Origin: a virus
Reading direction: 5' to 3' (one strand)
Length of the DNA stretch: 64,000 nucleotides
UHGV virus genome: UHGV-0176771
The translations under genes and the position numbers were made by a program. The notes below the pieces were generated by a model. That model was not told the origin of the DNA and made no database searches. It saw nothing but the letters and a program-made list of their open reading frames with translations. Numbering within the stretch: the first letter of the stretch is position 1; each line of letters opens with the position of its first letter. Shown here in pieces: positions 2,449-48,384 of the stretch.

Positions 2449-5400
2449 TTAGAAAACTGCTCTTGCGAGTTCTTTATCTTCATTAAAAAAGGAACAAGTG
2501 AAACTTGCCCCGCCAAATACATCTTCGTTTGTAATATGCAAACCTTTTGTTCCGTTTGCATGTGCCATATTCCAATAATGATCACCATCAGAGTCTGGAG
2601 ATTGCCTCGTCCATATAAAATGCGTTTCATCGTACATATCTGTTACATTGCTCTGACCAAGATATAACGTTGGTGAGAGAGTGGTGTTTATCATACCTGG
2701 TCTAAAAACAACTCCGTTTGATGAATATATACTCATAGTATATGGTGTAGAAACTTTAATTCCGTCAATCTGCGTCTGCATATTTGAAAACTGTTTTTCA
2801 ATAGTTGTGAACGATGCATTGATTCCTTCACCGTTTACAACAACATCAGATACATGAATTTTCCCATCTGCATCTTGTTCTACAGCTTGAAAAGCCAGTT
2901 TATCCTTTGCAATTGTATTATTTGCGATCATATCGTTTTTAATTAAACCATCTTCGATTGCAGAATCTTTAATACCTGTAGAATCTATCAGAACACCTTT
3001 TCCAGTTTCGTCATATAAACAAAATGTGAAATTATCATTATTATCTCTTCCTATTTGAATACGTACAACGTTATTTTTATCTTTAAATTGCATTGTGTTT
3101 TCTACAATAGAAATGCCACCATCATCTGATCCAATCTGAAATTGGTCTGTTGATATTTTACTCGCTTTCAACATATCAACCGTAATACGAGCTGCAATCA
3201 ACTCACTAATGACCGCTTCATCAATCACAACATTCTGTGCTGTAAGTTTGATAATATGTCCAAGTTCAGCAGACACGTTTCCTGAAATCAAATTGTCAAT
3301 ATTTGCAACATAAGCAGCTAACTTTTTGAAATCACCAGATTGAGCAACAATCTGTCCAGCAGAAATAAGTTCCGCCTGTAAGTACTGGAAGAAACCATTT
3401 TCTGCATGAATGTTGATACACTTGATCATTTCTGCTTCAAGCGTTCCCGGAGTAATATAATCACCGCCACCACCACCGATGATACTTCCGCCAGAACCAT
3501 TTACGATATTCTGTACTTTATTTGTAAAAGCAGAAGACTGTAACAGTTTCTGTAAAATCTCATAAATGTTATCATCTGTGATTTGCAGATTTCCTACATA
3601 ATTGTTTCTGGCTCCGCCACCTCCAAGATTTGATCCTGTCCCAAGAATTGAGATAAAATCATTTCTTTTAGACCTTGATTTGATCATATTTGAAAATGTA
3701 ATAGTAAAATTGTTGTCAAATAGAAATGGGTTATAAGAAATATTCATCACACGTAATTTTACAAAATAATCATCTCTGATTCCGAGCCAAATAAAATTCC
3801 CGAAATCTAAAGTTCTTGCATGTAATTCTGTTCCAGATGCAGAAATTAAATTGTCTGTATCAGTTGAATATATGACTTGTGGAACAGAAGAGGCTTCTAA
3901 TTCCTCTAACGCAATACGGCATAGTTCCTGTTGTACAGTTACAATATCCCTAAGTGAATCCTGTGTACTTATAAAAATGTTTTCATTTGTGTATGTCGTA
4001 GGATTAGTGATGTGATAAAGTTCTGCCAGTTCCTCTTTGGTAAAACCACCTAATTCATTGTCAGCCCATGTTTCTAATGCCATGTCTTGACCAAGAGCAG
4101 TACGTTTCTTGCCAAGTTCTTTCTGTTTTTCTTCCTCTACCTTTGCCTCTTCTCTACGTTTCTTTAATGCTGCAGCACAAGAATCTGCATTTTTCTCGTC
4201 AAGTTGATATGCGTTCTTTTCATAAATTTCATGTTTTCCTTTAAACCCATCTTCTGTTAAAGGTGGATATTTTTCTGGATCTTCTTTTGAAAGTTCTTGA
4301 TATCTTTCCCACGTTAAGTCATAGTGACTTTTCTGCAACAACTTAACTTGATCCTGATATGCAGTTAATTTTACTTCCAGTTCATTGATTCCATAATATT
4401 CCCATGTTGTTTCATAATCTTCGATAAAATCCATTTCACCTTCAGACGTTGGTAATTTTCGATTATCGAATTCAATTTGAATATTAGGGAGAATTGTATC
4501 CACGATTTGATGATAGATATTTGCGTCTGGAGATGCATTAAGAGCATCGATATCAAATTTCCCGTCCTCATCTACATATATTTTTTCGTAACCAAGTTTC
4601 TGTGCTTCGTATTCTTTTTTCAGAGCAGTTAGTGCTTCATCTGATAATTTATGCCAGTTACTTGGATCACAGTCTCCGGTAGGAATTCGAATATAAATCT
4701 CAGTGATTTTATCTTGTAATTCATTCCATTCTTTTGACATCTTTGTATAATCAATTCTTGCCTGTACACAAAAATCAAACCATGCTTTATATTTTTTAAT
4801 CGTAGAATCGGAAAGATATTTATTATTTAGCCAGAACCGATCAAGATAAAATAAATTATTATTTCCGCCATTTACCTGTTCAATTCCTAAATCGTTTGCG
4901 CCGGATACACGATATTTAGTATAAATGTGTTCATCATCTACTGATACATCAGCAGAATTCTGGACATTACGATATCCGATTGTAATGTTTGTTTCTTTCC
5001 CAAAATTTTCTACACGATAAAAGTTCACAACAAGATTCTTAAAGTCAAATTCTACAATACAGTTAAAAAACTTTTCAAAATCTTGCGTTAAAAATGTATA
5101 CGTATCTTTATAGTCAACATCAAAAGTTCCGATTTCATCTTTTAGATAAACCAGCTTCTTTTTAATTTCTCCATTTTCAATTGTTTCGTATTCTTTTGGG
5201 ATATTGTCGATATGACCGATTTTCCATCCAGGAACTTTTTCAATTAAGATGTTTACAAGACTAAGTTGAGGTGTTAGCTCATTGTAAAATTTGATCTGTT
5301 CTTTTGCAAATTCTACACCATCAACTTCTTCCACATTACCTTCAACCAGCATTTCAAGAGAATCTGTAGTTCCGCAATTCACTTTCCAACCATCAAGAGG

Positions 5401-5751
5401 AATCTGCCCGTATTCTCCTTGTGCAGAATTTGCAGTTACAGTTTTATATTCTCTTGTACCTATACCATGTGTTTCTGGGCTGTCCATAATGAACCATCCA
5501 AGAGTAGAAATATAAATCTTCATATATTTAGATAACCAGTTATAAGCAGAAGATTCTATCATTCGTCCATCATCTGTTTCTATGTACTGATTCACATCAA
5601 AAGTGATAGAAGAAACATCGTTGCACACCCCTTCAAAATTCACTGTTGAAATATCTATTCCGTTAATTGCACAAAGAAAAATTCTACTTGGAGTTGCAAG
5701 GTACGCGACTGGCTGTTCATGTCTTCCATATAAATCATAATTCAGTTGCAA
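2449..5751 (-). CDS. Tail-associated protein Tal (prophage tail endopeptidase-like N-terminal region, Gly-rich segments), 1100 aa
   Basis: 1100-aa ORF immediately downstream of the Dit-like gene. Size, position and glycine-rich stretches are typical of siphovirus Tal/minor structural proteins. Confidence 0.55.
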   Translation of the reverse strand: MQLNYDLYGRHEQPVAYLATPSRIFLCAINGIDISTVNFEGVCNDVSSITFDVNQYIETDDGRMIESSAYNWLSKYMKIYISTLGWFIMDSPETHGIGTREYKTVTANSAQGEYGQIPLDGWKVNCGTTDSLEMLVEGNVEEVDGVEFAKEQIKFYNELTPQLSLVNILIEKVPGWKIGHIDNIPKEYETIENGEIKKKLVYLKDEIGTFDVDYKDTYTFLTQDFEKFFNCIVEFDFKNLVVNFYRVENFGKETNITIGYRNVQNSADVSVDDEHIYTKYRVSGANDLGIEQVNGGNNNLFYLDRFWLNNKYLSDSTIKKYKAWFDFCVQARIDYTKMSKEWNELQDKITEIYIRIPTGDCDPSNWHKLSDEALTALKKEYEAQKLGYEKIYVDEDGKFDIDALNASPDANIYHQIVDTILPNIQIEFDNRKLPTSEGEMDFIEDYETTWEYYGINELEVKLTAYQDQVKLLQKSHYDLTWERYQELSKEDPEKYPPLTEDGFKGKHEIYEKNAYQLDEKNADSCAAALKKRREEAKVEEEKQKELGKKRTALGQDMALETWADNELGGFTKEELAELYHITNPTTYTNENIFISTQDSLRDIVTVQQELCRIALEELEASSVPQVIYSTDTDNLISASGTELHARTLDFGNFIWLGIRDDYFVKLRVMNISYNPFLFDNNFTITFSNMIKSRSKRNDFISILGTGSNLGGGGARNNYVGNLQITDDNIYEILQKLLQSSAFTNKVQNIVNGSGGSIIGGGGGDYITPGTLEAEMIKCINIHAENGFFQYLQAELISAGQIVAQSGDFKKLAAYVANIDNLISGNVSAELGHIIKLTAQNVVIDEAVISELIAARITVDMLKASKISTDQFQIGSDDGGISIVENTMQFKDKNNVVRIQIGRDNNDNFTFCLYDETGKGVLIDSTGIKDSAIEDGLIKNDMIANNTIAKDKLAFQAVEQDADGKIHVSDVVVNGEGINASFTTIEKQFSNMQTQIDGIKVSTPYTMSIYSSNGVVFRPGMINTTLSPTLYLGQSNVTDMYDETHFIWTRQSPDSDGDHYWNMAHANGTKGLHITNEDVFGGASFTCSFFNEDKELARAVF

Positions 5752-6825
5752 TTAGATCAGTGCTCCTTTCCTTGGCTCCAAGTAAGAAATATTTAAAGTT
5801 ACATTTCCAAACACTCTAAAAGTGTTATGTCCATGAATCAACCGCACCCAGTAAATATTGTCTTCCGCTTGAATACCAACACGTTCAAATACTACTGGTC
5901 TATCAAGTTCATCATAGAATGCTAAATTTTTACAATCCAATTTCAATTCCAAGTCACGCTGAGTCTGGCAGTAGAAAAATCCGCCCTGAAAAATATAATA
6001 CTGCCCGTTTTCAATATAGTACGCGCCATACTTATTCTTCACTCCGTAAGAATCAGTAAGATAGAATAGGATAGCAGTATTATTGCATACAGATACCACA
6101 TGACTATCTTTGTCATATACATATTCAAGAGTACACCCATTCATTTTTGCGTAATTTTCAATTTTATTCATCAATAATTGTAACGTCAATTTGTTTGTGG
6201 ATTGTAATGAGATTGTGCCAGATTCAAGTGTTTTACTGTCTGACAGATTATGGATATAGATTTGTTCTGTTGCTTTGGGATAAATATTAATAACTGGATA
6301 TACATATCCGTATTTGTCGCTGCTTGTATTTTGCAACATAAAGTTTTTACTACGTGTAATGATTTGTTGATCTTGTTTTTCTACATAAGAAAATGGCGAA
6401 TTGCATGTGAATGTACATCGTAAACCGTAACAAATTCCCCAATTCTCATATGGAGTGACAGAAGAGAAGTAGCCTTTTACTTTTACAATCTCGTCCTGTT
6501 GTGTTGTAATTTTTAACCATCTATGTTCTTGAGGTGATGTGAGCCATGAAACTGTCTCCTCGTATTCTTCTGTAGATAATTCTAATTCTTCCTGAGATGT
6601 ATTTACCTCGTAATCTTTTGTGATGTGTATTTCAAATACAAGTGTTTCTGTATATGTTGTTCCGAATCCAGTCACCTCTGGTCGATATTTATTCATTGTA
6701 GTAGATTCCATTTCTCTCACAATAGACGATGGAAGAGAAGTATCGTCATCAAAATTAACAGAAGAAAGATTCTGTTGCTTCAATGTTTGCTCATCAAATT
6801 CAAAATCTTTACATACTAGAATCAT
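5752..6825 (-). CDS. Distal tail protein (Dit)-like, 357 aa
   Basis: Lies between the tape measure gene and Tal. Its start abuts the Tal gene (5751/5752). Confidence 0.45.
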   Translation of the reverse strand: MILVCKDFEFDEQTLKQQNLSSVNFDDDTSLPSSIVREMESTTMNKYRPEVTGFGTTYTETLVFEIHITKDYEVNTSQEELELSTEEYEETVSWLTSPQEHRWLKITTQQDEIVKVKGYFSSVTPYENWGICYGLRCTFTCNSPFSYVEKQDQQIITRSKNFMLQNTSSDKYGYVYPVINIYPKATEQIYIHNLSDSKTLESGTISLQSTNKLTLQLLMNKIENYAKMNGCTLEYVYDKDSHVVSVCNNTAILFYLTDSYGVKNKYGAYYIENGQYYIFQGGFFYCQTQRDLELKLDCKNLAFYDELDRPVVFERVGIQAEDNIYWVRLIHGHNTFRVFGNVTLNISYLEPRKGALI

Positions 6826-7080
6826 ATAAATTCACCTCAACTTTCTTAAATTTTTATATCAAAAAAGGAGCTGAGAAAATTCTCAACTCCTTGTGTATTC
6901 GTTATTTATAAAGGGCAGGAATATTCGTTTGACAGAATATTCCAAATTATTTATAATGTAGGTTAGAGAACAGAATCAAACATTTTTATTCCAGGCTAGA
7001 TAGAGATGGTAGGCGGTTTGAGTCACGTCTGGATGGTGACATCTAGTTTATCGTATAGATACCCTTGCTAAGAAAGGAGG

Positions 7081-7182
7081 GTGATACAACGTGATAATTT
7101 GCGAACTTATTGCAGACATTGTGATTGGAGTCATTTCCTCTTACATAGTCAAGTTTATCGATAAGAAACGCAAAAATAACCG
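7081..7182 (+). CDS. Small hydrophobic peptide (33 aa, GTG start), type I toxin-like
   Basis: AAGGAGG at 7064-7070, GTG start 10 nt downstream. VIICELIADIVIGVISSYIVKFIDKKRKNNRHE: hydrophobic helix plus charged tail. Followed by a 9-bp-stem hairpin (AATAACCGC...GCGGTTATT). Confidence 0.3.
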
Positions 7183-7947
7183 CCATGAGTAAAGCGGTTA
7201 TTCTTGCTAATTGTTTAGTTTATTAGCCTTAATTCCACTAAAGGCTCAACCGTCTATAGGATTCTGGTCTCTTTTATTTTGCACACATCAATGTGCATTC
7301 ATTCAACCTATAGATAAAACCGCATTAACGGCTTCTTACTTTCTTTTATACTCACCTATTATAGCTTATTTTACTCGAAAAGTAAATATAAAACAAATAT
7401 AATTGCAATGTTTCTTTGTTGCACATCGCAAAGCATATTTTAAATAACAAACAATGTTTAATGGCACATTGCGAAACCAAATATAATTTGAACCCCAGCC
7501 TTTTATTAGCCACATACTGGGTAGCGGAAATAATTTAACCCCGTACCTTCTTTTTGACTGCTGATATATACGGTCACAGCAAATAATAGAATAGAAGAGT
7601 CACTGGTGATGACCTTTCTATTCATTTAAGGACTTTCTTTCAGAACATAGTTCCTAGTTAGGCTATGGGAAATCCTCGCACCTTTGTAAATCTCCATGTA
7701 AACCGGTTCCTAACCCGGCGTACACTTCAAAGATTATTTATAGCAGTCATATTACGCTGCATCACACCAGATTTTACTTAATTAGACAGCGTCCTGATAA
7801 AGCAGGCTATTCTATGGTAGTTTATCGTCCCCCAATAGAGAAAGTGAGCCGTCTCTTTCACTTTTACTTTTGGATATCCAAGGCATCTCTCCTATATTCA
7901 TATTCTCTTAATCACAAGCGGCAGGATAATAAATCCCACCGCTTATT

Positions 7948-10900
7948 TTAAAATGATCTGTGTACACCAGCTCTTTTGGCTTCTTTGGTAAATTCCTTTG
8001 TGACTCCTTCAATTACTTTCTTCATGCCAGGATAGGTTTCCTTGTCAATACTTCCTTGAACTTCTATCATCTTGTCATAGTAATTATTTGTTACATTAGG
8101 TCTTTCACCAAGGCTGTTTGCAATGTTCAGTGAACTATAAATATCATCTTTGTGTTCACCAAGATCCATAATGTTCTTTGACAGTCTTGCATTTACAACA
8201 GCATCACCATAAGTAATTGTCGTAGCTGTTCCTGTCAATGCACCACGCCTAACCATCATTTCAGGATTGTTTCCTTCATTGATACGAACAATTTCTGAAC
8301 CATTTACAAATTTCTTTGTTCCAGACGCATAACCTCTTAACTGGTCAAGACTTACCCAACCAAGGTCACGCTCTCCGAAACGAGGTGTTCTACTAATATG
8401 ATATTTCTTCTGTGCCCAATTAGCATTATTAACACTGGTAATATATACTTCCTGACCACGCATTTCATTTCCAGCAGGGGACTGACCGTCAGAAGAGTAG
8501 TAGTAATCTCCACTTGCGAATATTACTTTGTCTCCAACATTTGGTACTCCGTCTCCGCCACCATTATTACTCGGTGGTGGTGTAGTTGGTTTTGGTGGTT
8601 CTGGTTTTGGTGTGACAGTTACTGCACAACTATTTGTTGAAGTAGCTCCTCCACCATCTGTTGCAATTGCACTAATGGTAGTGCTACCTGCTTTGACAGC
8701 ATGAACAGTTCCATTTGCAACTGTAGCAACATTTGGATTTGATGACACCCACTGCAAGCTTTTATTTTTTGCATCATTTGGTCTGATTGTTGCCGAAACT
8801 GTGCCTGTAGAACCTTCCTGTATAGAAAGTGTCCCCGGACTTAATGTAATTTCTGCAACTGGTCTGTTTGATAAGTCTGGATTCTTACTGATATCACCTT
8901 GAATCTGGTCATTCTTATCCTGTGTTGTTCCGTTCTGAATCTGACCGGTATTCACATCCGTCCAATCATCCGGTCTATAATTAGGAGCATTAGTCATACT
9001 ATTGTCAACTTGATCTTGTGCTCCATTACTTGTACCAAGATTTCCAAGATTATTGGATAAATCTTTATTCGGTACAAATCCTGTACTGTTAATGATTTGC
9101 TGAATTTTGTCATAAGCCTGTTGGTAGTTTCCAACAATATTTCCAAGCATTTGAGATATTACTTGTTCCTGCTTTTCAGCATTTCGAGTAACATCATATA
9201 ATGTTTCCTCCAGCTGCTTATCGAGATCCTCACTCAAACCGTCCAGACCATTCTGGTGAACATCATATTCATGGTCATCACGGGTGTCTTGCATTTCTTC
9301 TTCGGCATCTCTAAGTTGTGCTTTTAACCTCTTTAATTCAGCCTGTGCACTCGCATTATTCGTGCCTTCGAGTGCAGCAATCTGAGCTTTCAATGTATTC
9401 ACATCTCTAGCCTGTTTACGCAGAGTCTTATTGTAATCAGCATTTTTCTTTTTGATATCCAATAATTCCTTCTGCTTATCAATCGATTTTTGAGCAACTT
9501 CATTCTCTTGCTCAAGCATCTTTGTATACAGATCAACAATAGAATCTTTGTAGTCTTCTACAATATTAACAGAGCTTGAAATCTGATTGAGAAATTCTTT
9601 TTGCTGCTCCTTATATTCACTTGTTGAGATATTCCCGTTCTTTAAATCCTCATCAAGCTTCTTCAATGCCTCTTGATAATTCTTAATCTGTTGTTTCGCA
9701 GCATTCATACCCTGACTAATCAAAGCCAAATTTGCAATACCATCAAGTGTTAATCCACCATTTTTCCCAACAAAAGCATCACTATTTAAAAGTCCTCTTA
9801 AATCATCTGTCTGGTCAATCAGATCACCTAATGCCTCCTGTCCATCAAAGAACGGTTGCCATCTTACTTCCCAGATTTTATTTTTGAGGTCTTCAATATT
9901 ATTCATTGCATCAAAGATAGCGTCATCGAGCTTTTCCATCTCTTCCGCATATTCATTATATTTGTCAGAACCGACATCATATTTTGCCTGATCTCGTAAT
10001 AGCTCTTGTCTCTTATTATAATTCGCTTGAATCTGTGCATTGGCATTATCAAGTTGCGCCTGTAAATCTTTTTCAGATATTTGTTCGCCTTTTGACTCTG
10101 TAAGGTCTGTGTTGTTCTCAAGACGTTTTGCAGTTCTGTCTAATTCATCGATTGCCTGTTGCAATTTCAATAAATCAAGTTCTCTTAGTTGGTCTTGCAA
10201 TTCGATCAATGTTGTTTCAGCTTCAGCAGCTTCTTGTCTGAATCCGTTTAATGCAGCTTGAGCTTCAAACCATTCCGTTGAGTATTCAGCCATATACCCA
10301 TTTGCCATGAGTTTATTGATTTCATCTTGATATGATTTAATCTGTGACTGTAATTTACCTGCAACATCCTGTTGATTTTTAATAGATTCTTGCAGAGAGC
10401 CATACATATTGTCGGAATATGCAGATTCTCCTTTTGCAGCCGCTAGTTCACGTAATGCTTCCTGATAATCTACAGCAGAGGACTCAATTCCAGTCATCAT
10501 ATCGATGTAATCTTCAATATTATCCAATGCTGTCTGCGCCAGTTCACTCTGTTTGTTTAAGAGGTCATCGTACTGTTTATTACAGTCTACGAGCTTATCA
10601 TAATAAGACTGTAGCTCACTGATTATTTTTTGAGTATCATCATCGTATTTTGAAATATCCATAGACCCGTTCTGAATCTGATGGACGATAAGTGGGTTTA
10701 TTCCACTCTGTCGCACAATAGAATCAAAATGACTTTGATAAGTCCCAATTGCTTGCTGAGTCCTATTCAGTAGTTCACTGTTCTTAGACATTGCCTCATA
10801 CAGTTTCTGTTGCTTATCTGGGAGGTGTGCGATACGCTCCATTTGACTCATCAATAAATCATACTGTGATTCTAGCCGTTGAAATAACACCTCAACCCAG

Positions 10901-13900
10901 TCTGTATATCCAGATACTGCTTCTGATAATTTCTCTGCCGCTTCGGATGTATCAGATGCTGCTCTTGAAAGGTTATTTGATGCGGAGTTAAGATTGTTGG
11001 AAGTAGAAGAGTTCCCAATTCCAGAAATTCCTGATTGACTTCCAGATCCTCCAATGCCAAAACTTCCGCCACCACTTCCATTTGCAAAAGCAGTTCCAGA
11101 AGCGTAAGCTCCACCCATGAAAACTTTGGCACGAGAATTTACATATCCTTTAGAAAGTAGATCTCGTGTCTGAAGGTGGTTGAAGATTATGTCTCCACGT
11201 TTTAGATTTACGAATTCTGCACCATTGTCTCCAATGGTTGTGAATTTTCCTCCGCGTACAAGAAGTTCTGTTCCTAGTTCACCAACCAAAGCACGCTCAT
11301 CTTTTTTTACACCCCAATCACCTTGGTCAAATGCGTGACCAGATTTAGGATTTACAGTTCCATCTGCATGAGCAGTTCCGTTAAAACGCGGCATCATCAG
11401 TCTGCCATTTCCTACGTTTGTACCAGTACTTACTGTTTCAACTCTATGTGTATAAATATAAGTATGTGCAGCACTTCCGTCTAAACCTGACAGCATTCCA
11501 CTTACTCCAGAAATTACCGGTGTAGCATGATCGCTAGCCTCGATATTTGTATTTGATTCATCAGGGATACTTTCGACACTTCCAGTTACATTTTCTGCCG
11601 TTAATGAAGCAGAAGCATCTGTTGCAGTAATAACAGCTGTCTTTTGTTCCGGTGTTAAAGAATTCCAAAGACCAATCACATATGTAGCTTGATCTTGTGC
11701 AGTCATTGATGTAAATTTCGGATTTGCGCTCAAACCGTTCCATAAAGTAATAATGCCTGTTGCATGGTCTTCTCCGATTAATGGAACAGATTTTTGTATG
11801 AGTTCTTTCTTATTAATATCATCAATTACAGGAGTAGCGTTATCTACGGCATCTAAATGTACAGGTACGCCAGGAAGGTTAAGACCGTGTATTGCCTTTT
11901 CCATTACGAACTGAAGATCATTATCTACTTCATAAGCAATTGTTCCATCCGCAGTTATAACAGGCTTCAATGCTTTTTCTACACCATCTATCTCAGCAGT
12001 ATAAGTAACTGTTCCGTCTTCATCCTTAACGGCTTTAACTACAGACTCAACATTAGAAACATCTGCATTGTATTTAATAGTCTGATTTGCTTGAAGATTA
12101 TTTAATGCTGTGTTCATTTCTTCTGTAGAATTGAATGTTTTAACTTCAATTTCCGGTGAAAGATTCTTTATATCTTCGAGCACTTCTTCTTTGTTTTTTA
12201 CTTTTAGTTCTGCATCAAGTTCAATGCCGTTTTCTTGTGCTAATTGACGAATTTGATCTTCCATCAAGCTAACCACTTCGTCTGTGTTTTCCCCATAGGC
12301 ATTTTCTCTGAGAATCCTATCACGTTCTTCTTTTAAACTACTAATTGCTGTTTTTGCCTGTTCAACTTGTTTTGCATAATCATCTGCAGATTTTGTTATG
12401 AGTTGACCAAGATTAGCTTGGGTTTGCTGTAAGTCAGATTCAAGTCCTTTAATCTTTTCGCGCTGCTGATCGATTGCTGTACTGTCTGCCCCAGTTGCTT
12501 CGAGCCTCGCCAATTCCGCTTTCGCATTCACGAGTTCTGTGCTTAAGTCAGATACACGTTTTGCACCCTGTTCAACAGAACCGACAAAGTTATTACTGAA
12601 GCCATAATCTTCAAGACGACCAAACATGTCCATAAAAAATTCAAAACCTACGCCCATATTTGTCGCAGCTTGCTCTAAATCTTCTATATTATATGTCCAT
12701 TGCTCTGTTCCGTCAGCAACTGTCTTAAATGCCATTCCTTTGCTTTCAAGATCAGTTAAGAAATTATGTACGCCAGATGCATCTTCTGTCAGATAGCGAG
12801 CAGCCTTAGCGTAATTTTCAGCAAAGTTTACAGCATCTTCTGCACCAGTAGGAGAGAAGTAGGCGGCTCTCTTTTTAAAGTCGTCGGTTCCGATCAACCC
12901 TTTATCAAACATTTCTTTTGCTTGCTCAAGATATGATTTTGCCTGAACATAGTCATCACCGGCATTTTTAGTTTCGTCAGCAGCACTAATTGCTTCGAAA
13001 TTTTTATTTGCTTCTAAGTTAATACCAGTCGAAGCAAGTGCTTTTGCATTTTGGATCTCAGATTTTAGTTGGTTAAATGTGCCCGTAAATTTATCATTTA
13101 CAACTAAGTCATAACCTTTTTCCAAATCTTCTAATGACAAATCTTTTGCTGCATCGCCATACAGTTCTGTTAGCTTTGCTAGTTGATCTTCAGACTCTTC
13201 AATTACTTTGTCAAAACCAAGAGATTTTTTGAACGCCTTTTGTGCTTTGCTATCATTAGGAAATGCTTTTTCAAGAGCTGTGTCAATTGTCGATATGTAT
13301 TCTCCAACATTCAACATAGATGTATCCAGAGTCAACATATCTTTAATTGCCTTTTGTCCTTCTGGTTTCATATCTGCCATAGGCTGAATAATTTCGCCAT
13401 ACATGAAAGACATAAAGTCACCACCATAGTCTTTAGCCACGGTTTCGTAATCAATATTATCAACATTACCTAAGAATGCATCTTGAATTGATTTATCTAA
13501 TTTTGTAAAAGTATCTGAAGTTTGCAGATACTGTCCGAGTGACTCTCCCATTTTAGACCATTGTTCTTCGATAAGAAGTTTTGTTGCAGCTATACTTTTT
13601 TCTGCTTCTGCATTTTCAACAGTCATTGAATTTATGGCTTCACTTTTATATTTTGACAGTGTATTTTTTATCTCATTTGCAACATTTTTATCGAATCCTG
13701 ATGTTGATATTGTCACATTGCCTGCATCATCAATAGCCTCTTGCATTGCAACGCCATTATCACTTAAAATTTTTGCGATTTCTCTCTGAGCTTTCGCCCT
13801 ATTTTCTCCATATGATTTTAAGCCTAATGTTATATCACCAGAAGAAGATAATTCGTCAGCATCAATTTCCATATCTGCCATCGCTTTATCATTTTTGTCA

Positions 13901-14868
13901 ATGGTATTTTGTAGAGTTTTAATTTTGTCTTCATATTCCTCGATTTGAGCAACTGTGCCTTCGTAATTATCCTGCAGACCTTCTCCAATCTTAACATTAG
14001 CAGATAGCATCTGCGCGTCATATAAACTCTTCAGACTTGCTGCAGCAGAATCTGCATTGCTACCAAGATTAAGAATAGCATTTCCTTGTGCGTCATAACC
14101 TTCTACGAGAGATGGGAACTGTGACGCTAACTGATTACTAATATCCAGATACTGTTGATATTCCTCAGAAGACAGTCCTTTGTTTTTATTCGTTACAGTA
14201 TCTACATTCTTGCTTAATTCACTGTATTTCTTTGCGACATTCTCTATCGCATCACCTGTCGTTTCAATATCATCTGCATTATCTGCAAATGACTGACCAA
14301 GTGTGTCCAGAGTATTCTTGCCTTTAGAGAACTCAGCAAATGTCTCATCGATAGAGCTTTTCGCTTCTTTTCCTTTGGCAATCATTTTTTCTTGACGATG
14401 AATGTAGTCATCAATCATAGTAATAACGCCTTGAATCGCTACACCGGCAAGCATACCGATACCTGCGTTTAAAAGACTTGAACCGATCATTCCTCCTACG
14501 TTTTTAAGAGTAGAAGTTACTTTACCAAATTTTGATGTGGATTTAGAAGCTGACTCGATATGCGTATCCATATCTTTAATGTTCTTCTTCCCAGAATCAA
14601 CGTCACCTAAAAATGTAATAAGTTCTTTGTCTGCGTATCCCATAGATTTTGCCCAATCAACCCATTTCTCAGGTTGATTATCGCCTAATCCTGAAATAAC
14701 TTTATTTGCTTTTAAAAACTCTTCACTTATTTGTGGAGTTTTATTTTTGTATGCATCAAATAAGCTGAACCCAGTATCCTTATCATAGTTGAAAACCGTA
14801 TAGTTTTGATGTACACTTATATTAAATACTTGCAATATTTTATATAAGGAAGAAAAATATGAGTTCAA
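7948..14868 (-). CDS. Tail tape measure protein, giant (2306 aa): N-terminal hydrophobic segment, long coiled coils, C-terminal Ig-like (BIG2-type) and SH3b-like domains
   Basis: Position immediately upstream of Dit/Tal. Coiled-coil-rich. [44 protein letters not shown] Ig-like segment; [13 protein letters not shown]3b-like. Annotated start is a TTG overlapping a divergent gene, so the true start is uncertain. Confidence 0.65.
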
Positions 14869-15332
14869 AAATTAAATTCTGCGAAAAATGTTCGCAAACA
14901 AAAAAGAATATGGAGTCAGTAAATACAAATTATTCAGATGTTGAATCGCTTATTGAATTTGGCAAAGGAATGATAATCGGATTTTCAGATGATGTAAAAC
15001 GTTGTCCATACTGCGATAACGATCTGGAAACCATCAACATGTCCACTGACGATTTCCTAACCATCCGTGATGCGTCCAATTGTAATCGAGATTTACTATT
15101 TGCAATGATAAAACTGCATGATGAAGATCCAATTGGGTATGAATTAAAAATGGCTCAATTCCGCGAGATAGCAGAACGTAAAAAAGCAGAAGATTCCAAA
15201 CCACGTTGTCCAAAATGCGGATCGACTTCAATCGCAACTGTCAACAAAGGTTATTCACTTCTCACTGGTTTCCTTGGCTCCGGTAAGCCTATGAATGTAT
15301 GCCAGAGCTGTGGACATAAGTGGAAGATATAA
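14859..15332 (+). CDS. Zn-ribbon protein (two CxxC pairs at the N-terminus, CPKCG...CQSCGH at the C-terminus), 157 aa
   Basis: RBS AAGGAAG upstream of ATG 14859. Cys motifs read directly. First gene of a plus-strand accessory island. Confidence 0.55.
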
Positions 15333-15357
15333 GAATGTGGCAGGGGAGAACAGAAGT

Positions 15358-15588
15358 TTATTTGTCGATTACTCTCTTCAATAATTTCTCATGCTCTCTA
15401 CAAATAGTATCAAGATCAAATTCTGGCGAAACATCATCTGGAAGTTTTTCTACTGTTTTGTCAGAATTAACTTGATATACATCACCGTTCCAGACAAACT
15501 GATTTTCGGAAATGTACAGCCAATCAGATTCAACGGAGTGTTTTGGATACGACAGAATAGTCATCGACTCGTCTAATTTTTGTTGCAT
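15358..15588 (-). CDS. Hypothetical small protein (76 aa), weak support
   Basis: ORF between the two plus-strand island genes; no clear RBS. Confidence 0.2.
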   Translation of the reverse strand: MQQKLDESMTILSYPKHSVESDWLYISENQFVWNGDVYQVNSDKTVEKLPDDVSPEFDLDTICREHEKLLKRVIDK

Positions 15589-15695
15589 TTTTATGTCATC
15601 AATTTTTAATTTGATTTTATATAAATCTATAACTAATTGTTTTTCGTCATCTGTTAACTTAATAATTTTAACTCACCACCTTTGGAGGAAATTTT

Positions 15696-16457
15696 ATGAA
15701 AGTATTAGATATTGTTCCATTATACTTAAAATATCAAAAAGAATACCCAAGAAATGATTATCCTGAACTATCAGTAGATAACCTTGTGTATGTTCATGAT
15801 GTTGATTTTTTCTTTCAATTTAATTCATCTAAATTATATGATAATCAATATGAATTAAAAATTAACATGGAAGCGTTTGCATTAAATGATACATATTTGA
15901 AAAGCATATTGTATCACGAATTCACGCATATATATGATTCTCTTATGTTCAAAAACAAAACAATAGATGAGTATAAAAGTATTTTGTCATATTACTCGGA
16001 AATACATTCATCGTACATCGAAATGAAAAGTAGGATAAAAGAAATATCGAATTCTATATATGTACAGGATGAAAAGATCGCAATACCAATGGATATGCAC
16101 ATACAGCAAAAATATTTAAATATTAAAAAAGAATGGTCAAATTATATTGAGTATAATCCAGAAACCATCACAGATAAAATAAAACGGCTCTGTTATTTTG
16201 TTGGACATTATAAATATCTGAAAGATAATTACGATATACCTGAATTTGAAATTGTATCACCATATTCCGAAGAAATATACAACATTATAAATGATTATTC
16301 TAATGAAGTGTATGATTTACAAGAACATTTTGATAAAATCATTCAAAAGTCAAAACGTCATAAAGACAGCCAAAATTTTGAGAAACTGCAATCAATTTTG
16401 GACGAAGATGCAATAAATCAAAATGCATTATTAAAATTATTCATAAATAAGGAATAA
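15696..16457 (+). CDS. HExxH-motif protein (putative Zn metallopeptidase, ImmA/IrrE-like by motif only), 253 aa
   Basis: GGAGG RBS before ATG. HEFTHIYD motif in the sequence. Very AT-rich codon usage, unlike the neighbouring structural genes. Confidence 0.5.
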   Translation: MKVLDIVPLYLKYQKEYPRNDYPELSVDNLVYVHDVDFFFQFNSSKLYDNQYELKINMEAFALNDTYLKSILYHEFTHIYDSLMFKNKTIDEYKSILSYYSEIHSSYIEMKSRIKEISNSIYVQDEKIAIPMDMHIQQKYLNIKKEWSNYIEYNPETITDKIKRLCYFVGHYKYLKDNYDIPEFEIVSPYSEEIYNIINDYSNEVYDLQEHFDKIIQKSKRHKDSQNFEKLQSILDEDAINQNALLKLFINKE

Positions 16458-16582
16458 TTGTTAAATGCGGATCTACGTCAATCACAGCAGGACAGAAAGG
16501 ATATTCGTTCTGGACTGGATTCTTAGGAAGTAATAAAACAGTCAATAGATGCAGTAACTGTGGTCATACATGGAAACCGTGA
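16452..16582 (+). pseudogene. Remnant of a second copy of the Zn-ribbon gene C-terminus (no start codon)
   Basis: Frame after the TAA translates to CGSTSITAGQKGYSFWTGFLGSNKTVNRCSNCGHTWKP*. This parallels [41 protein letters not shown] of the 14859..15332 product. Confidence 0.5.
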
Positions 16583-16614
16583 TGGGAGAGTAGTAGTTAG
16601 AAATAGAGGTGTTT

Positions 16615-16914
16615 CTACAACATTTCTGTTTCTAACTCACGTATCCTACACATTAGGTCATCACATGATTTTTGCTGCTTTTTCAATGTGTATTCACATG
16701 GATAATCTGTTTTGTGAAGACCAAAATTATTTTCGATTTTTTCATTAAAATCTTTATGCATTTGGTTCAATATCTTTCGATTGTTTTTGTTTAATGAATA
16801 TAAGAATATAATCATTCTACATTTTGTAAAGTGTAAGAATGTATATATTTTGTAATGCAGTAAGTGTAAATTTTTCAATTTTAGGTTCACCACCTTTACC
16901 AGTAATTTAAACAT
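16615..16914 (-). CDS. Hypothetical small protein
   Basis: ORF only; N-terminal part looks low-complexity. Confidence 0.25.
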   Translation of the reverse strand: MFKLLVKVVNLKLKNLHLLHYKIYTFLHFTKCRMIIFLYSLNKNNRKILNQMHKDFNEKIENNFGLHKTDYPCEYTLKKQQKSCDDLMCRIRELETEML

Positions 16915-17108
16915 ACATCATCTTGTATATTAAAATACTTCCAGTATGGAATATAATCAATAGTGGAACCAATATGGATGGTATCTTGTATTTTTGATGA
17001 CTCTTCTTCACTTAATTTATAGATTTCAAATATATCATCAAGTTCTAGATTTTTTGTAACACTGTTTTGCATGTGGAACTCACCTTCTTTTACAATATTT
17101 ATATGCAC
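16896..17108 (-). CDS. Hypothetical small protein (70 aa)
   Basis: ORF only. Confidence 0.25.
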   Translation of the reverse strand: MHINIVKEGEFHMQNSVTKNLELDDIFEIYKLSEEESSKIQDTIHIGSTIDYIPYWKYFNIQDDVCLNYW

Positions 17109-17502
17109 AAAAAAGAGACATCAATTAAGATGCCTCTTGATTTAAAATTATTTCACTTATGAGGGCGCAATGCCTCATCTCTCTGATAAGAATAAAACTT
17201 ATCTCTCTATCGTTTTACGACAAATCAGAGCAGTAAATATTACTATTTTTATCAAAATAAATCTCATAGTTTGGGATTATGCCATCCCAATTTTAAACAG
17301 TCATAAACCCACGAACAAATACACATCATATAAGGCAGGTAAAATAATATCATTTGTTACACTGTTGTTTGTCCATTTTTATTTAATAAAACACAGTCAA
17401 ATGTTGTTTTATCTCTAGCAATTTCACAATTACATATCAATTCATCAAGAATTAAATTATTTTCAATATTATCATTTTTCATCTCGTTTTTTTCAATTAA
17501 AA

Positions 17503-17967
17503 TCATTTCCAATTTATATTCCACCTTTTTAAAGTATCAATTGTTACATTCGGATTTAGATATTTCATAATTTCTAACCCTTTATATTTTACTTCTGTTT
17601 CGTCATGAATGTTCCAAAAATGATGTACAATTTCTTCTATATATGCATAAGTTATAATTAAAAAATTATTTGCCTTCCTTAATCTATTCATATGATAAAT
17701 GATTAATGAAAATGTAGATGCACAACATTTTTCATCTTCTTCGTCAATTATTAATTCGTCACCGCCTAAAAAAACAACACTTGCCTTTTTGATACTTTCT
17801 TTGGTTATTCCATCTTTTTTCATGACAACTGCTGCGTATTTTAACACAAGTGCAAAAGCTTTCAATTCATCTATTGACATTTCACAAGTTGATATTAATT
17901 CTATTTTGTCTTCAAATATATCTGGTTTTACAATATCGTGTATTGGAACAACATTTCTTACTCCCAT
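17503..17967 (-). CDS. Hypothetical protein (154 aa)
   Basis: ORF in the accessory island. Confidence 0.45.
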   Translation of the reverse strand: MGVRNVVPIHDIVKPDIFEDKIELISTCEMSIDELKAFALVLKYAAVVMKKDGITKESIKKASVVFLGGDELIIDEEDEKCCASTFSLIIYHMNRLRKANNFLIITYAYIEEIVHHFWNIHDETEVKYKGLEIMKYLNPNVTIDTLKRWNINWK

Positions 17968-18100
17968 ATTATTTTTCTCCTATTATTCATCATTAGTATC
18001 ATTTCCATTATATACCAATAATGAATAGAAGAGTAGTCTGAACATATGCTTCTATAAAATCAAAACATTAGCCAATATAATAGAAGAGTAGGGTTATTCC

Positions 18101-18655
18101 CTACTCTTTTATATCATCTAATTTCAGCACATACAATTCACATTTTTCGTTATAAGAATCACCAACTGCATGTTGAGTTTCTTCATTTGCCCTTTGAAAT
18201 CCAAGAGATTTATAGAATCTGATACCCTGATCATTGTCTGCGTCAACAAAAACAATTATACCATATATAGCAATTATTTTTGAAACAGTAATGATTTTTG
18301 GAACAATATAGTCTGTAAATAGAACTGTTCCGACACCACTACCTTGAATACCATATTCTACAGCAATACGTGAAATTTCTACAACAGGCAATGCTGTGTA
18401 TTCGTCAATGCATTCATCATATGTATGTATTGCATTGGCTTTGACTGTATAAAAAGCTAATATACTTGTCTTATCTTTGTCTAACAAAATATATGTATGA
18501 CCCTGTTTATCTTCCGCATAGTCAAAGGAATTATCTGATAAAAAAGTATTTAATGGGTCATCTGCTCCACAACAAAAATCTCCAACAAGCGTAAAATGTG
18601 TATTGGATTCTCTTGTTAAAAGCTCTTCAACACATTGATTCGAAAGATCGGTCAT
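18101..18655 (-). CDS. GNAT-family N-acetyltransferase (184 aa)
   Basis: QGSGVG acetyl-CoA-binding motif and FYKSLGF segment. ATGA start/stop overlap with the upstream 77-aa gene. Confidence 0.65.
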   Translation of the reverse strand: MTDLSNQCVEELLTRESNTHFTLVGDFCCGADDPLNTFLSDNSFDYAEDKQGHTYILLDKDKTSILAFYTVKANAIHTYDECIDEYTALPVVEISRIAVEYGIQGSGVGTVLFTDYIVPKIITVSKIIAIYGIIVFVDADNDQGIRFYKSLGFQRANEETQHAVGDSYNEKCELYVLKLDDIKE

Positions 18656-18885
18656 CTGTTCTTTTCTCTCAAGAATTTTGCAATAGCAGAACTTGCATTT
18701 TCCCTATCTGTGGTAGTCGCTGGAATAAATTTACTTTTCTTAAAATCATCTACGATTTTAGTAGCTGCCTTCCCTTTTAATAATGGAACAATAGCCTTTG
18801 AAACAGCCATATGTTTCCCCTCCTTTGTATGTATGGATACTTTTTTACCTAACTTCATATAATCACCCCTTAGTATTTGAAGCAA
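18652..18885 (-). CDS. Small protein translationally coupled to the GNAT gene (possible antitoxin-like partner)
   Basis: 4-nt overlap with the GNAT start. Small basic protein. Confidence 0.4.
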   Translation of the reverse strand: MLQILRGDYMKLGKKVSIHTKEGKHMAVSKAIVPLLKGKAATKIVDDFKKSKFIPATTTDRENASSAIAKFLREKNR

Positions 18886-19748
18886 TTATACATTAAAAAA
18901 ATTGAACAAAATGTCGAAATATAACGTGAGAAATAAATTAGACTATTTTTTGTGTATCTTATTATACATTTTTTATTAAATTTGTTCAACCGCTAGATAT
19001 AGTGCGGGAAAATAAAAAACACACTAATTATATAAATTTTTCCTATATATAGTTGTTTTCTCTATATTTAAAATATCTCTTGTGTTTTTGAAAGGAAAAA
19101 AATATTCTATATTATTTGTTTCCACAACATTACAAAAGGACAGGATATAATTCCCTGTCCTTACATCGTGGTGTTACGAGCTATATTATTTTTAACTCAT
19201 GTATTATTATACACTCTTTTTGTATTAAGTCAAGTAGAATGTAAACAATTTGTGTCTATTTTATCTCTATTAGAAAACGACGAGAGATGCGCCGAGTGGA
19301 ATGCCACTATAAATATCCTGTCCTGTTTTTGCAAGTCAGCAACAGGTTGTGTAGTTTGCGTCAATAGAGCAGTAGTAAATATTGTCGTATCTCATATTGA
19401 CTACCCTGGGCTTTCCCCAGGTACGGACTGTATGTTGTGTACCATATGATACAATTACGCCTGTATCACGTCATGTCTTGTCAGTCTCTCGCGCCCTATA
19501 TATGGAACTACACTTCCAGTTTTCGCTATAGTGCGTCGGGACTACCATTTTCACATTAAATGCTTATTCCTTCACGAACGTATTTCTTCTATAATAAATA
19601 CGCTTTTATTGCATCGATCCGGCACCTATATAAATAGGCTTACGGCTTCCCCCGATATTCGACAATTTAGAAAATATATTTTCAAGGATGGTCATATTAC
19701 ATTACGATATATAATATGAACACTCTCTACGTTAATTGCATGGCATTA

Positions 19749-21977
19749 TTATGCAACCTTATAGAAAGGGGCGAATTCAACTATGTTATCATTACCCAAC
19801 CCTTTTTTACTTAGAACGGTTCCAGAGAACAATCCTAATAAAGAAGAAAAGCTTCCAAATTTATTTAAAATTCCATCCAAAACACCAAGAAATGATGTTC
19901 CAGAATCAACAAGAAATCCAAATACATCTGAACTTAATAATGAAGTAGACAAGGACTGGAATTTGTTTTCAAAACCTTCAATCTTACCAGAAATAGATTC
20001 TTGATAAGCTGCATATTTCTCCATTGATTCTCCAGACGCATTGTTGGCAATGTCAATATATTTTTCAACATTTCCCCACTGCTCCATAAGAACCATAAAT
20101 TCATTCATATGATGAGTTCCGGCAAAAGCCTGAGCAACTGCTCTTTTCTGGACACCTGAGAACGTTTTCCATCCTTCCGCTGTTTCTGAAAGAACTAAAT
20201 CAAAATCTTTGAACTCATCTTGCGTATCTCTAAGTGAAATACCAACTCCTCTTAAAACAGTTTCTACATTACTAAGATCCTCACCAGTTTCATAATCTTT
20301 AAGTCGTGATAGTTTAATATTACCCATACGAGAAAAGATTGCGTTAAGAGATGTTCCAACAGAAGCCATTCCTTCCTGAGTTGTCTCTCCAATTACGGCT
20401 GCATAGCTTAAAAGATTTTGAGTTTCAACACCTGCAGTTTTAGCATTTGCAGCCACTTCATTAAAGGCAGTCGCTAATCCTCCAACATCCGTAGCACTTG
20501 CCATATCAATTGCACTAATTTGATCAACAAATCCCATAACTTGACTTTCAGCCATGTTATATGATTTCATTGCAGCAGTAATAGTCTTTGTCGCGTCTTC
20601 TGAAGACAAATCGCCTATTTTCGAAAGGATTATGGAATCCTCTGTCAATTTTGAGGCTTCCTGAATTGCCTTACCTTGTTTTAGCCATTCAGTAGATGAT
20701 TTTGCAATATCAACTCCAGTTGCTTTCAGTTTGTCTCCGAGTTCATAATATGTGTCCATCATCTTATATGCTTCGTCATTTGAAAGAGATGTAGCCATTC
20801 TCAAATCTGTCATAGCATCGTTTACAGTGATGACATTAGAAACCATTTTTCTTCCGCCATCCATAAAAACATCTTGAATTACGCCGTAAGTAGTAGCGAA
20901 TTGTCCAATCTGTTTAAATCCTCTTGTTATTTCATCAATAAAACTTTTCCCATTTAACCCTTTTAATGCAATTTCAGATTTTGCACTTGCAAATTGTTTT
21001 CTAACATTCTCGCCAGATGCAGCTCTTCTTGATAAGTCATTTAACGCATCTTCATACTCTTTTGTTAATCGAGTATTTTCTTTCATATACTTCTGAATAT
21101 CGTTGCTTAAAATTGAAGACTCTAAAGAATTTAATGTTCCTTTCACACTATGCTTTAATTCTGACATAGAATTTTCGAAGCGTTCTGCAGCTAAATTTGC
21201 TTTATTAAGGTTATCAGCCAGTTCATCTGTATCAAAAACAAAAGAATCATTGCTGTCATAATGTTTACGCAATTTATCCATCGTATTAGCGTATTCATCA
21301 ATCATAGATCGTAGACTTTTAATTTTACTTTCATCAACATCATAGGAGTCTTTAAATGAATTTAATTCAGATTTCATTTTTGCAGTGTTAGATTGCACTT
21401 TATACGAATCCAAATCATGTTGAGTCTTTTCTGATAATTTCAGTAATCTTGTAAATTCTTTTTGCTCGTTCTGTACAACCTTAATCTGATTCCTGTATTT
21501 TTCTAAATCACTTGTAAGCTTATTAAAATTAATTTCCATAATGGAATCATTTGGAGCCAATTTCACATTATTAATATCTTTATTGATGTCGGATAATAAC
21601 TTTCGAGCCTTTTCCGCGGATTTTGTCGTAAGAGATTCAAACTTTTTAAAATCTGCATTTGCCTTTGAAACATCTGCATCAATCTTTAAAGTAGAAACAC
21701 TTCGTTTCGCTTTTTCAATATCAGATAATCCTTTTTTAATTCCGGATGTATCCATATCTGCTTTAACACTGATTTTATTATTCTTCTCAATATTCTTAAA
21801 TACACCGTTGATCTTATTCAGATTCTTCATTCCCTGAACATCAAAATCAACTTTAATCTGTTTATCGTTTTTTACTAAATTATCTAATTTTTTCTGGGCA
21901 GCATCTAGTTCACTTGTATCAACATTCGTACTAACCCGTACTTCATATTCGCTCATTTTTAAAATCACTCCTCTCAA
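19749..21977 (-). CDS. Tape-measure-like protein with PhageMin_Tail-type core (742 aa); N-terminal coiled coil, C-terminal Gly-rich hydrophobic segment
   Basis: Segment GLATAFNEVAANAKTAGVETQNLLSYAAVIGETTQEGMASVGTSLNAIFSRMG... fits the conserved TMP core pattern. C-terminus FGFLVDSGTSFLGVLDGILNKFGSFSSLLGLFSG is typical of mid-TMP hydrophobic regions. Confidence 0.6.
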   Translation of the reverse strand: MRGVILKMSEYEVRVSTNVDTSELDAAQKKLDNLVKNDKQIKVDFDVQGMKNLNKINGVFKNIEKNNKISVKADMDTSGIKKGLSDIEKAKRSVSTLKIDADVSKANADFKKFESLTTKSAEKARKLLSDINKDINNVKLAPNDSIMEINFNKLTSDLEKYRNQIKVVQNEQKEFTRLLKLSEKTQHDLDSYKVQSNTAKMKSELNSFKDSYDVDESKIKSLRSMIDEYANTMDKLRKHYDSNDSFVFDTDELADNLNKANLAAERFENSMSELKHSVKGTLNSLESSILSNDIQKYMKENTRLTKEYEDALNDLSRRAASGENVRKQFASAKSEIALKGLNGKSFIDEITRGFKQIGQFATTYGVIQDVFMDGGRKMVSNVITVNDAMTDLRMATSLSNDEAYKMMDTYYELGDKLKATGVDIAKSSTEWLKQGKAIQEASKLTEDSIILSKIGDLSSEDATKTITAAMKSYNMAESQVMGFVDQISAIDMASATDVGGLATAFNEVAANAKTAGVETQNLLSYAAVIGETTQEGMASVGTSLNAIFSRMGNIKLSRLKDYETGEDLSNVETVLRGVGISLRDTQDEFKDFDLVLSETAEGWKTFSGVQKRAVAQAFAGTHHMNEFMVLMEQWGNVEKYIDIANNASGESMEKYAAYQESISGKIEGFENKFQSLSTSLLSSDVFGFLVDSGTSFLGVLDGILNKFGSFSSLLGLFSGTVLSKKGLGNDNIVEFAPFYKVA

Positions 21978-38800: not shown

Positions 38801-38871
38801 AGCTCAGACCCAGATTTGAACTGGGAACAATTGATTACAAGTCAATCGTTTTTCCATTAAACTATCCGAGC
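38801..38871 (-). tRNA. tRNA-Thr (anticodon UGU)
   Basis: Manual cloverleaf: acceptor GCTCGGA/TCTGAGC (one G-U); D-arm GTTT/AAAC; anticodon stem ATTGA/TCAAT with loop CTTGTAA; T-arm CCCAG-TTCAAAT-CTGGG. No encoded CCA. Confidence 0.7.
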
Positions 38872-48311: not shown

Positions 48312-48384
48312 TGCAGAGCCTGGGAGTCGAACCCAGTATTTTCAGATTATGGATCTGATGTGATAATCCGTTTCACTCGCCTGC
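48312..48384 (-). tRNA. Degenerate tRNA-like element (CAU-type anticodon loop with C33, bulged acceptor stem), possible tRNA pseudogene
   Basis: Perfect T-arm CTGGG-TTCGACT-CCCAG. Anticodon arm TCAGA-TCCATAA-TCTGA. D-arm GTGA/TCAC with GG loop. Acceptor pairs only with a 1-nt bulge. Confidence 0.35.

Follow-up and report, generated by a model that had tools for sequence, protein, structure and literature searches.

Why should a phage tape measure gene be found in two pieces, with kilobases of other genes wedged in between? The question is raised by the virus genome UHGV-0176771, of which a stretch of 64,000 nucleotides (nt), called the window throughout, was analysed. According to the list of open reading frames (ORFs), the minus strand holds one ORF of 742 amino acids (aa; 19749..21977) and one of 2306 aa with a TTG start (7948..14868), which bears out the observation of an earlier note, made from the sequence alone, that two tail-type ORFs are separated here by 4.9 kb. 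That note left a choice between a single ancestral tape measure protein (TMP) gene split by a moron island and two TMP paralogues with cargo between them. In our reading, which is held with good confidence and is based on sequence comparison, the two ORFs are the exons of one tape measure gene that would be joined by group I splicing. The island opens with a conserved group I ribozyme and closes with sequences complementary to it, so that the gene is most likely rejoined at the RNA level; the single gene of the first proposal was thus upheld, whereas the plain gene-breaking insertion of a moron was not.

The evidence for a single gene comes from the proteins. The 742-aa ORF contains the PhageMin_Tail domain (PF10145) at residues 412-619 (Pfam, E = 1e-24), in agreement with the TMP core recognised there earlier, and this domain is absent from the 2306-aa ORF, in which Pfam found a Big_2 domain; of the C-terminal Ig and SH3b domains that had been assigned to the latter, SH3b was not detected by Pfam. 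When a chimera of both ORF ends was used in tblastn searches, yomI of SPbeta and the tape measure genes of two Clostridioides phages (ES-S-0107-01 and ES-S-0173-01) were found to be uninterrupted across the join, and the two window halves matched adjacent, consecutive parts of single tape measure proteins. These three TMPs are homologous to both halves, with the PF10145 core, the hydrophobic segment and the coiled coils in matching order, but each is encoded by one uninterrupted gene of 2041-2285 codons, unlike the split gene of the window; Rfam searches of the Clostridioides phage loci returned nothing, the genes there being simply continuous. In the window, the core lies in the first half and the hydrophobic segment and coiled coils in the second, so that the YomI-type layout is found in one polypeptide only if the RNA is spliced. 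The alignment of the upstream ORF to the uninterrupted proteins halts exactly at residue 728 (...KKGLG), and its final 14 residues are unmatched. Similarly, the upstream proteins of relatives in the protein database terminate in ..YKVA*, ..IKIA* or ..KKTA*, and protein conservation among them ends at G-[LHR]-G while nucleotide conservation runs on, a pattern of in-frame read-through of conserved nucleotides rather than of protein conservation. In the downstream proteins of relatives, conservation begins only at VFNYDKDTG, and the hypothetical join KKGLG|VFNYDKDTG aligns to the contiguous KGLG..IPNY and KRNLPIVNYNKDTG of the uninterrupted proteins. About 40 of the 47 protein clusters found in the chimeric-query search end at this codon; this protein database search found no intron-less close relative and no match of the chimeric query that spans both halves.

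The start of the 2306-aa ORF does not behave as a translation start. Its codons 1-24 (14868-14797) show no protein-level conservation and contain the ribosome-binding site of a zinc-ribbon gene on the opposite strand, which argues that they are not tape measure coding sequence. As described before, the TTG overlaps the start of that gene at 14859 (10 nt shared), although it is not the single possible start that it was thought to be, a further in-frame TTG being present at 14835. Among relatives, the downstream half has no conserved start codon and no Shine-Dalgarno sequence, and the triplet directly 5' of the conserved part is ACG in three lineages and ATG in others.

The predicted exon 1 (19794..21977, minus strand, as are both exons and the intron) comprises 728 codons from the TTG at 21977 to ...KKGLG and was delimited by PF10145, the limit of conservation and frame arithmetic; the annotated 742-aa ORF continues for 14 codons into the predicted intron, to a stop at 19749. 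The predicted group I intron (14797..19793; 4997 nt) consists of ribozyme, cargo and 3' tail, with its splice sites placed from P1, P10, the terminal G and the protein alignment. Exon 2 (7948..14796; 2282 codons) would start with VFNYDKDTG and contain the hydrophobic segment, the coiled coils and Big_2; its first 13 nt (14784..14796, minus strand) read GUUUUCAACUAUG, and positions 4-13 of these were identified as the P10 strand in a duplex scan. The predicted join 19794|14796 is in frame and would give a 3010-aa protein with the junction KKGLG|VFNYD, the corresponding spliced RNA reading ...AAAGGGTTGGGT|GTTTTCAACTATGAT and the 30-mer across the junction AAAAAAGGGTTGGGTGTTTTCAACTATGAT. Within the intron, P1-P9.2 occupy the first ~480 nt and are followed by ~4.4 kb of cargo, the antisense zinc-ribbon gene and a tail of ~60 nt that ends in G. 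The GC-richer non-coding core that had been noticed between the ORFs was recovered in the same place, the first 560 nt past the upstream coding part having a GC content of 0.38 and the remaining intervening DNA 0.29.

The ribozyme core (19317..19793, minus strand) was defined with RNAalifold, pair counts, a covariance model (CM R1) built from tape-measure cores only, and the z-score of the minimum free energy (MFE). Its elements, all on the minus strand, are the P10 intron strand (19785-19776, CAUAGUUGAA), the internal guide sequence GCCC (19772-19769), P2 (19768-19721, hairpin 19758-19734), P3 (UGUC 19664-19661 with GACA 19477-19474), P4 (UCGGGG 19655-19650 with UCCCGA within 19546-19533), P6 and P6a (19535-19492), P7 (GACUG 19486-19482 with CAGUC 19430-19426), P8 (19469-19446), P9 (19421-19405) and P9.2 (19346-19317). 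An nhmmer profile built on four ribozyme copies retrieved 28 copies, mostly from IMG/VR phage contigs of 90-175 kb, with one copy in the 64-kb window; no match to the region or to the ribozyme was obtained with megablast and blastn among 50,697 GenBank phages. The RNAalifold consensus of ten representatives, 59-98% identical, has 65 pairs, of which 30 show compensatory changes. A group I-type model was also written by hand, with P1, P2/P2a, P3, P4, P5, P5a, P5b, P6/P6a, P7, P8, P9.1, P9.2 and the P3/P7 pseudoknot. For its 87 hand-assigned pairs, 92.7% of the cells of alignment A5 can pair, compared with 30-47% when the partners are slid by 1-3 columns, and both sides have changed in 37 pairs, compared with 5-11 when slid; none of 500 shuffles matched the observed pairing values. 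The single-sequence fold gave an MFE z-score of -2.4. Compensatory changes were found to be numerous in P2, P5, P6, P6a, P8 and P9.2, and P3 also covaries (UGUC/GACA, with UGCC/GGCA in the related locus L133 and ACCC/GGG in introns of reductase genes).

The assignment to group I draws on the splice sites and on a chain of relatives. In P1, the exon sequence ...GGU pairs with GCC(C) of the guide; the last exon base, U, stands opposite a G of the guide in 10 of 10 sequences, the next two pairs are G-C in 9 of 10, and the GCC of the guide is invariant. The last intron base is G in all 11 loci, and the words GAGAGACUGACAAG and AUACAGUCCG resemble the classical R and S elements. CM R1, which matches the window core at 19423-19671 with 253 bits, also matches compact, ORF-less introns of reductase genes over the full length of the model (E = 4e-11 to 7e-8), the best being L164 (54 bits, E = 4e-11). 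The same ORF-less introns of ~450-560 nt, located at ...GFNP|C.AEI, were retrieved with the conserved word CGAAUAUCGGGGGA. These introns of phage ribonucleotide reductase genes (L150, L151, L160 and L164, on other viral contigs) share core sequence and fold with the window, including CGAAUAUCGGGGGAAG, AUCCCGACGC, GCGCGAGAGACUGACAAG and the S-like word named above, but they reside in another host gene, carry no cargo and have the 3' splice site directly after the P9 region. The alignment of L164 to Rfam RF00028 (Intron_gpI) covers model positions 1-253 and puts P3, P4, P5, P6, P8, the P7 strands and P9 as assigned by hand.

A 3' splice site 4.5 kb beyond the ribozyme would have to be found by the RNA, and two pairings were identified that lead to it. 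The stretch that separates the 5' splice site from the guide complements the first codons of exon 2 (P10) over 10-19 bp across loci, for example 12-13 bp in L003, 14-15 bp in L012 and ~15 bp in L145 by duplexfold (18 by eye with G.U pairs), and its intron strand covaries with the exon sequence in L003, L012, L133 and L145. When the remaining intron and 2 kb of exon 2 were scanned in all 20-nt windows (5,000-8,000 per locus), the start of exon 2 was the top complement of this L1 segment in 8 of 10 loci, and it ranked 9th in L129. The second pairing involves the apical loop of P9.2 (19325..19336, minus strand, ACUUGCAAAAAC) and a word of the tail (14828..14835, minus strand, UUGCAAGU), which starts 39 nt before the 3' splice site and occurs once in the 4997-nt intron. 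In all 11 loci compared, 7-10 bp without a mismatch can form between the P9.2 loop and a word located 35-45 nt 5' of the 3' splice site; L155, L147, L165, L149 and L101 were left out of this comparison because exon 2 was not found there. Three compensating loop/tail states were observed, CUUGCAA/UUGCAAG (the window and most others), CUUGGAA/UUCCAAG (L168) and AUUUGGG/CCCAAAU (L145), and just 4-5 nt match in non-cognate combinations. The possibility that TTGCAA near the 3' end is a -35 box of the downstream half was rejected, since by eye the spacing and the -10 hexamers are inconsistent among loci and the covariation with the loop explains the word.

The following course is proposed. A late transcript would cover the whole element, probably made by a YonO-type RNA polymerase of the phage, and the folded ribozyme would present the 5' splice site in P1, where GGGU of the exon pairs with GCCC. 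Two tethers would draw in the distant 3' splice site, namely the long P10, formed between the segment 5' of the guide and the first exon 2 codons, and the 8-bp pairing of the P9.2 loop with the tail word. Two transesterifications would then link 19794 to 14796 in the message for the full-length protein. In a lysogen, the GNAT module and the other cargo would rely on promoters of their own for expression, as would the zinc-ribbon gene.

Related phages carry the split at the same codon and with the same ribozyme, and the genes in between differ. The latter were found to be IS605 tnpA/tnpB (Y1_Tnp, OrfB_IS605) and others in L003, helix-turn-helix (HTH), Spo0A_C and ToxN genes in L012, HTH and small ORFs in L007, two Panacea-domain proteins in L145 and a MazF-like domain protein in L129, and L004, which is 95% identical, has the GNAT module and otherwise different genes. 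Intron lengths were 993, 2955, 3145, 4103, 4438, 4543, 4787, 4997 (the window), 5230, 5663 and 5898 nt. The earlier note had named, as the finding that would speak against its proposal, relatives with the same two genes, conserved genes between them and a clear start for the second; the split codon is indeed shared, but the intervening genes are not, and a conserved start or ribosome-binding site is lacking. The candidates L138 and L142, which were considered as uninterrupted read-through versions, really have a different intervening sequence a few codons away. Related TMP genes are also interrupted at other codons, in L007 (11741-14960), L032 (9674-11946), L005 (10847-13926) and L138 and L140 (after ...GKNNSG), one of these interruptions containing an 830-aa ORF and one a 457-aa ORF, and some relatives have, at or near the same codon, non-coding cores without similarity to the ribozyme of the window.

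The cargo of the window includes a GNAT acetyltransferase (18101-18655, minus strand; Pfam Acetyltransf_1, acetyltransferase family phrog_1758) and a small ORF of 77 aa (18652-18885, minus strand) that overlaps the GNAT start by 4 nt, a layout like that of a toxin-antitoxin pair, although the 77-aa ORF matched no antitoxin family and no DUF1778 even at E <= 10. A pair of GNAT genes had been reported for the island; only one was confirmed, the ORF at 17503-17967 (minus strand) having no GNAT signal and no family match. No family match was obtained either for the minus-strand ORFs at 16896-17108 and 15358-15588, while the HExxH protein described before was recovered as the HEFTH motif of the plus-strand ORF at 15696-16457. 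None of the cargo ORFs matched a PADLOC or defence-system model.

The gene adjoining the 3' splice site is an antisense double zinc-ribbon ORF of 157 aa (14859..15332, plus strand; phrog_2546), for which the earlier assignment agrees with zinc-ribbon matches in Pfam that fall below the cut-off. It is the sole conserved protein gene of the intron family, found at the same place in L129, L009, L012, L133, L134, L145 and L168, and the window and L145 versions share 76% identity in the C-terminal ribbon. Sequence searches of Pfam, PHROGs, PADLOC, NCBIfam and PDB were uninformative as to its function and revealed no nuclease signature, and a single-sequence AlphaFold model (pLDDT 58) was too poor to use. 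The intron of L168, with 993 nt, consists of the ribozyme, a hairpin, an antisense 136-aa double zinc-ribbon gene as its only ORF, and the tail; in view of this minimal form, the longer introns look like the basic unit with cargo placed between the ribozyme and the antisense ORF. An apparent decayed prophage remnant of a human-gut bacterium (L009 8279-8935, L010 and L011; at least 10 contigs) contains part of tape measure exon 2 (a 207-aa fragment), the intron 3' tail and the zinc-ribbon gene, and lies ~4 kb from a tyrosine integrase and the host genes alr, yjeF and rex.

Signals for transcription were found on both strands. A consensus scan placed a promoter-like site of the zinc-ribbon ORF at 14789..14817 (plus strand), with the -35 hexamer TTGAAA in exon 2 and the -10 hexamer TACACT in the intron tail, and similar hexamers were seen by eye at the same place in relatives. 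This site straddles the 3' junction and its -35 hexamer lies inside the P10 target, so that the same DNA would serve coding, RNA pairing and an antisense promoter. On the minus strand, the promoter-like sequence TTGACT-16-TATAAT (19233-19206; scan score 11/12) is conserved in close relatives and is followed after ~45 nt by a hairpin with a U-run (19160-19133), directly after the ribozyme; judged by these two signals, 19133..19233 possibly specifies a minus-strand transcript of ~70 nt. The scans also gave another strong minus-strand promoter-like site at 18989-18961 and terminator-like hairpins at 18108-18084 and 17138-17113 (minus strand). Elsewhere in the window, the 924-aa ORF at 50181-52955 (minus strand), without any Pfam match, is a homologue of YonO-type single-chain RNA polymerases and 42% identical to that of Clostridium phage c-st. 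YonO transcribes the whole late operon of SPbeta and bypasses pause signals (PMC5467207); by analogy, we infer that the polymerase of the window could read through the cargo. In several Enterocloster phages the YonO-type match comes in 2-3 pieces over 3.4-3.6 kb, which suggests that this gene is interrupted there too. Just downstream of the neighbourhood of the polymerase gene, a full-length ROOL RNA (48745-49348, minus strand; 325 bits) lies near tRNAs at 48575-48647 and 48312-48384, with a further tRNA at 38801-38871 (all on the minus strand). A drum RNA (7625-7735, minus strand; 64.7 bits, above the gathering score) was found ~200 nt past the tape measure stop codon.

Several observations weigh against a spliced tape measure gene and were set against the evidence above. 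P1 is short (3-4 pairs) and invariant, and therefore untestable by covariation; P4 and P7 are likewise invariant and neither support nor test the fold. The P10 complementarity of the window is only 10 bp, and the start of exon 2 ranks 6th there, another site of the intron pairing slightly better. The Rfam group I model (RF00028) does not match the window copy or L012, the shortest family member searched, even at E <= 10, and its match to L164 (32 bits, E = 2.5e-6) lies below the gathering score of 50. Without a direct match to a curated model, membership in group I rests on structure and on the homology chain through the compact relatives, and the reductase introns, which also score below the Rfam gathering score, are likewise unannotated. 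No homing endonuclease (LAGLIDADG, GIY-YIG, HNH, His-Cys, PD-(D/E)xK) was recognisable among the intron ORFs. Finally, the terminator-like hairpins of the sense strand, including that at 19160-19133, are an obstacle for a precursor made by the host polymerase, and together with the antisense gene they mean that a continuous 5-kb precursor is not guaranteed.

The same hairpins would suit a relic ribozyme that no longer splices, with two tail proteins made instead, a 742-aa N-terminal part and a C-terminal part from a non-canonical start; both ORFs are long and intact, the upstream one reaches a stop of its own after 14 codons of intron, and an ATG stands directly before exon 2 in some lineages. 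Such a relic is nevertheless considered unlikely. Among lineages that are only 60-68% identical, compensatory changes preserve the RNA helices, P10 and the loop-tail pairing, which a dead ribozyme would not retain; the ACG of three lineages is no start codon, a ribosome-binding site is present in none, and the 14 read-through codons are conserved as nucleotides and not as protein. The hairpins could also end a first transcript, with exon 1 and ribozyme on one RNA and tail and exon 2 on another, the two meeting in trans through P10 and the loop-tail pairing, which, with 10-19 bp and 7-10 bp, are longer than is usual in group I introns. Trans-splicing is, however, regarded as very unlikely: no conserved sense promoter was found upstream of the tail, this stretch being the coding region of the antisense gene, the 993-nt version of L168 does not need it, and a processive phage polymerase is available.

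Removal or toleration of the insert at the DNA level, as a transposon or recombinase-excised element whose RNA structure is incidental, would explain why cargo differs among close relatives (their ribozymes are 95-98% identical, and the introns measure 4103, 4997 and 5898 nt) and why one relative, L003, has IS605 tnpA/tnpB inside, and it could draw on a sequence near the left end that is an inverted copy of one just outside the right end. The island of the window, however, has no recombinase or transposase and no direct repeats, and the right-hand "repeat" is conserved coding sequence that is present also in uninterrupted genes; it thus belongs to the target and not to the element, as pairing with a guide sequence predicts, and a DNA element was judged highly improbable. 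Two large tail-type ORFs in tandem are what paralogous TMP genes with an ordinary accessory-gene hotspot between them would look like, but the halves are dissimilar, the PF10145 core is present in the first only and both align to consecutive parts of single proteins, so that the paralogues of the earlier note are hardly credible. A group II intron was discarded for want of a GUGYG start, a domain V and an Rfam match, and a split intein because the ORF ends carry no intein motifs by eye. Interruption of one tape measure gene by a group I intron is therefore preferred.

Two kinds of known element come close to such an intron. In IStrons, for example CdISt1 and BcISt1, a group I ribozyme is joined to an element of the IS200/IS605 or IS607 type, and this 5' ribozyme is able to splice out a long 3' ORF region (PMC4227781). 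The intron of the window resembles them in having the whole ribozyme at the 5' end, the ORFs next and the 3' splice site 4.5 kb further on, and in both the ORF region is bracketed by RNA pairing, by an inverted-repeat (IR) stem of 6-34 bp in IStrons and by the P9.2 loop-tail word and P10 here; both are found in Clostridia and their large phages. Unlike IStrons, the window island has no IS200/IS605 or IS607 transposase in any cargo ORF, and among relatives only L003 has one; the load in the family amounts to 1-5 kb of variable genes unrelated to mobility, encoded on both strands, together with the conserved antisense zinc-ribbon gene. The intron is single-copy in the 64 kb and always follows GGT at one TMP codon, whereas IStrons are dispersed and follow a T-rich pentanucleotide, and its length in the family is 3-6 kb compared with 1.4-2.6 kb in IStrons. 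Sequence similarity to IStron/IS605 RNA was limited to a non-significant partial match (E = 0.85), and none was found in L003. The second kind is represented by TMP-IVS1-3, group I introns in the tape measure genes of Bacillus cereus-group prophages (PMC2504315). There, different introns occupy several insertion sites of one TMP gene family, and the related contigs studied here are likewise multiply interrupted, but the TMP-IVS introns are of compact size, whether or not they contain a homing endonuclease gene, and no description gives any of them kilobases of unrelated cargo or a tether to a remote 3' splice site. It is thus already known that prophage TMP genes can harbour group I introns and that a 5' ribozyme can remove a long ORF region. 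Full-text searches of the literature found no description of a group I intron with 1-5 kb of changeable, independently promoted cargo of toxin-antitoxin type on both strands, with a conserved antisense zinc-ribbon gene, or with a distal 3' splice site held by two covarying tethers.

Gene callers and Rfam miss the element, and two tail genes with a "moron island" are reported instead; as a consequence, the length of the tape measure protein, and hence the predicted tail length, would be misjudged across an entire clade of large gut Clostridia phages. The covarying P10 and loop-tail pairings appear to be a natural solution for a 3' splice site kilobases away, and may be relevant to engineered group I ribozymes with long inserts. 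It is tentatively suggested, as a possibility somewhat short of an even chance, that the intron family is a platform for gene cargo, in which an essential late gene becomes, thanks to the ribozyme, a site where toxin-antitoxin or defence-type genes can settle without harm and be expressed by the prophage from their own promoters, and the extended P10 and loop-tail tethers tolerate a changing load of 1-5 kb. If this were true, it would be the first group I intron known with an accessory-gene island instead of a mobility gene, and splicing, in cis or even in trans, might gate tail production. A self-splicing RNA may in this way shelter kilobases of exchangeable genes within an essential structural gene, which would be a new kind of accessory-gene hotspot.

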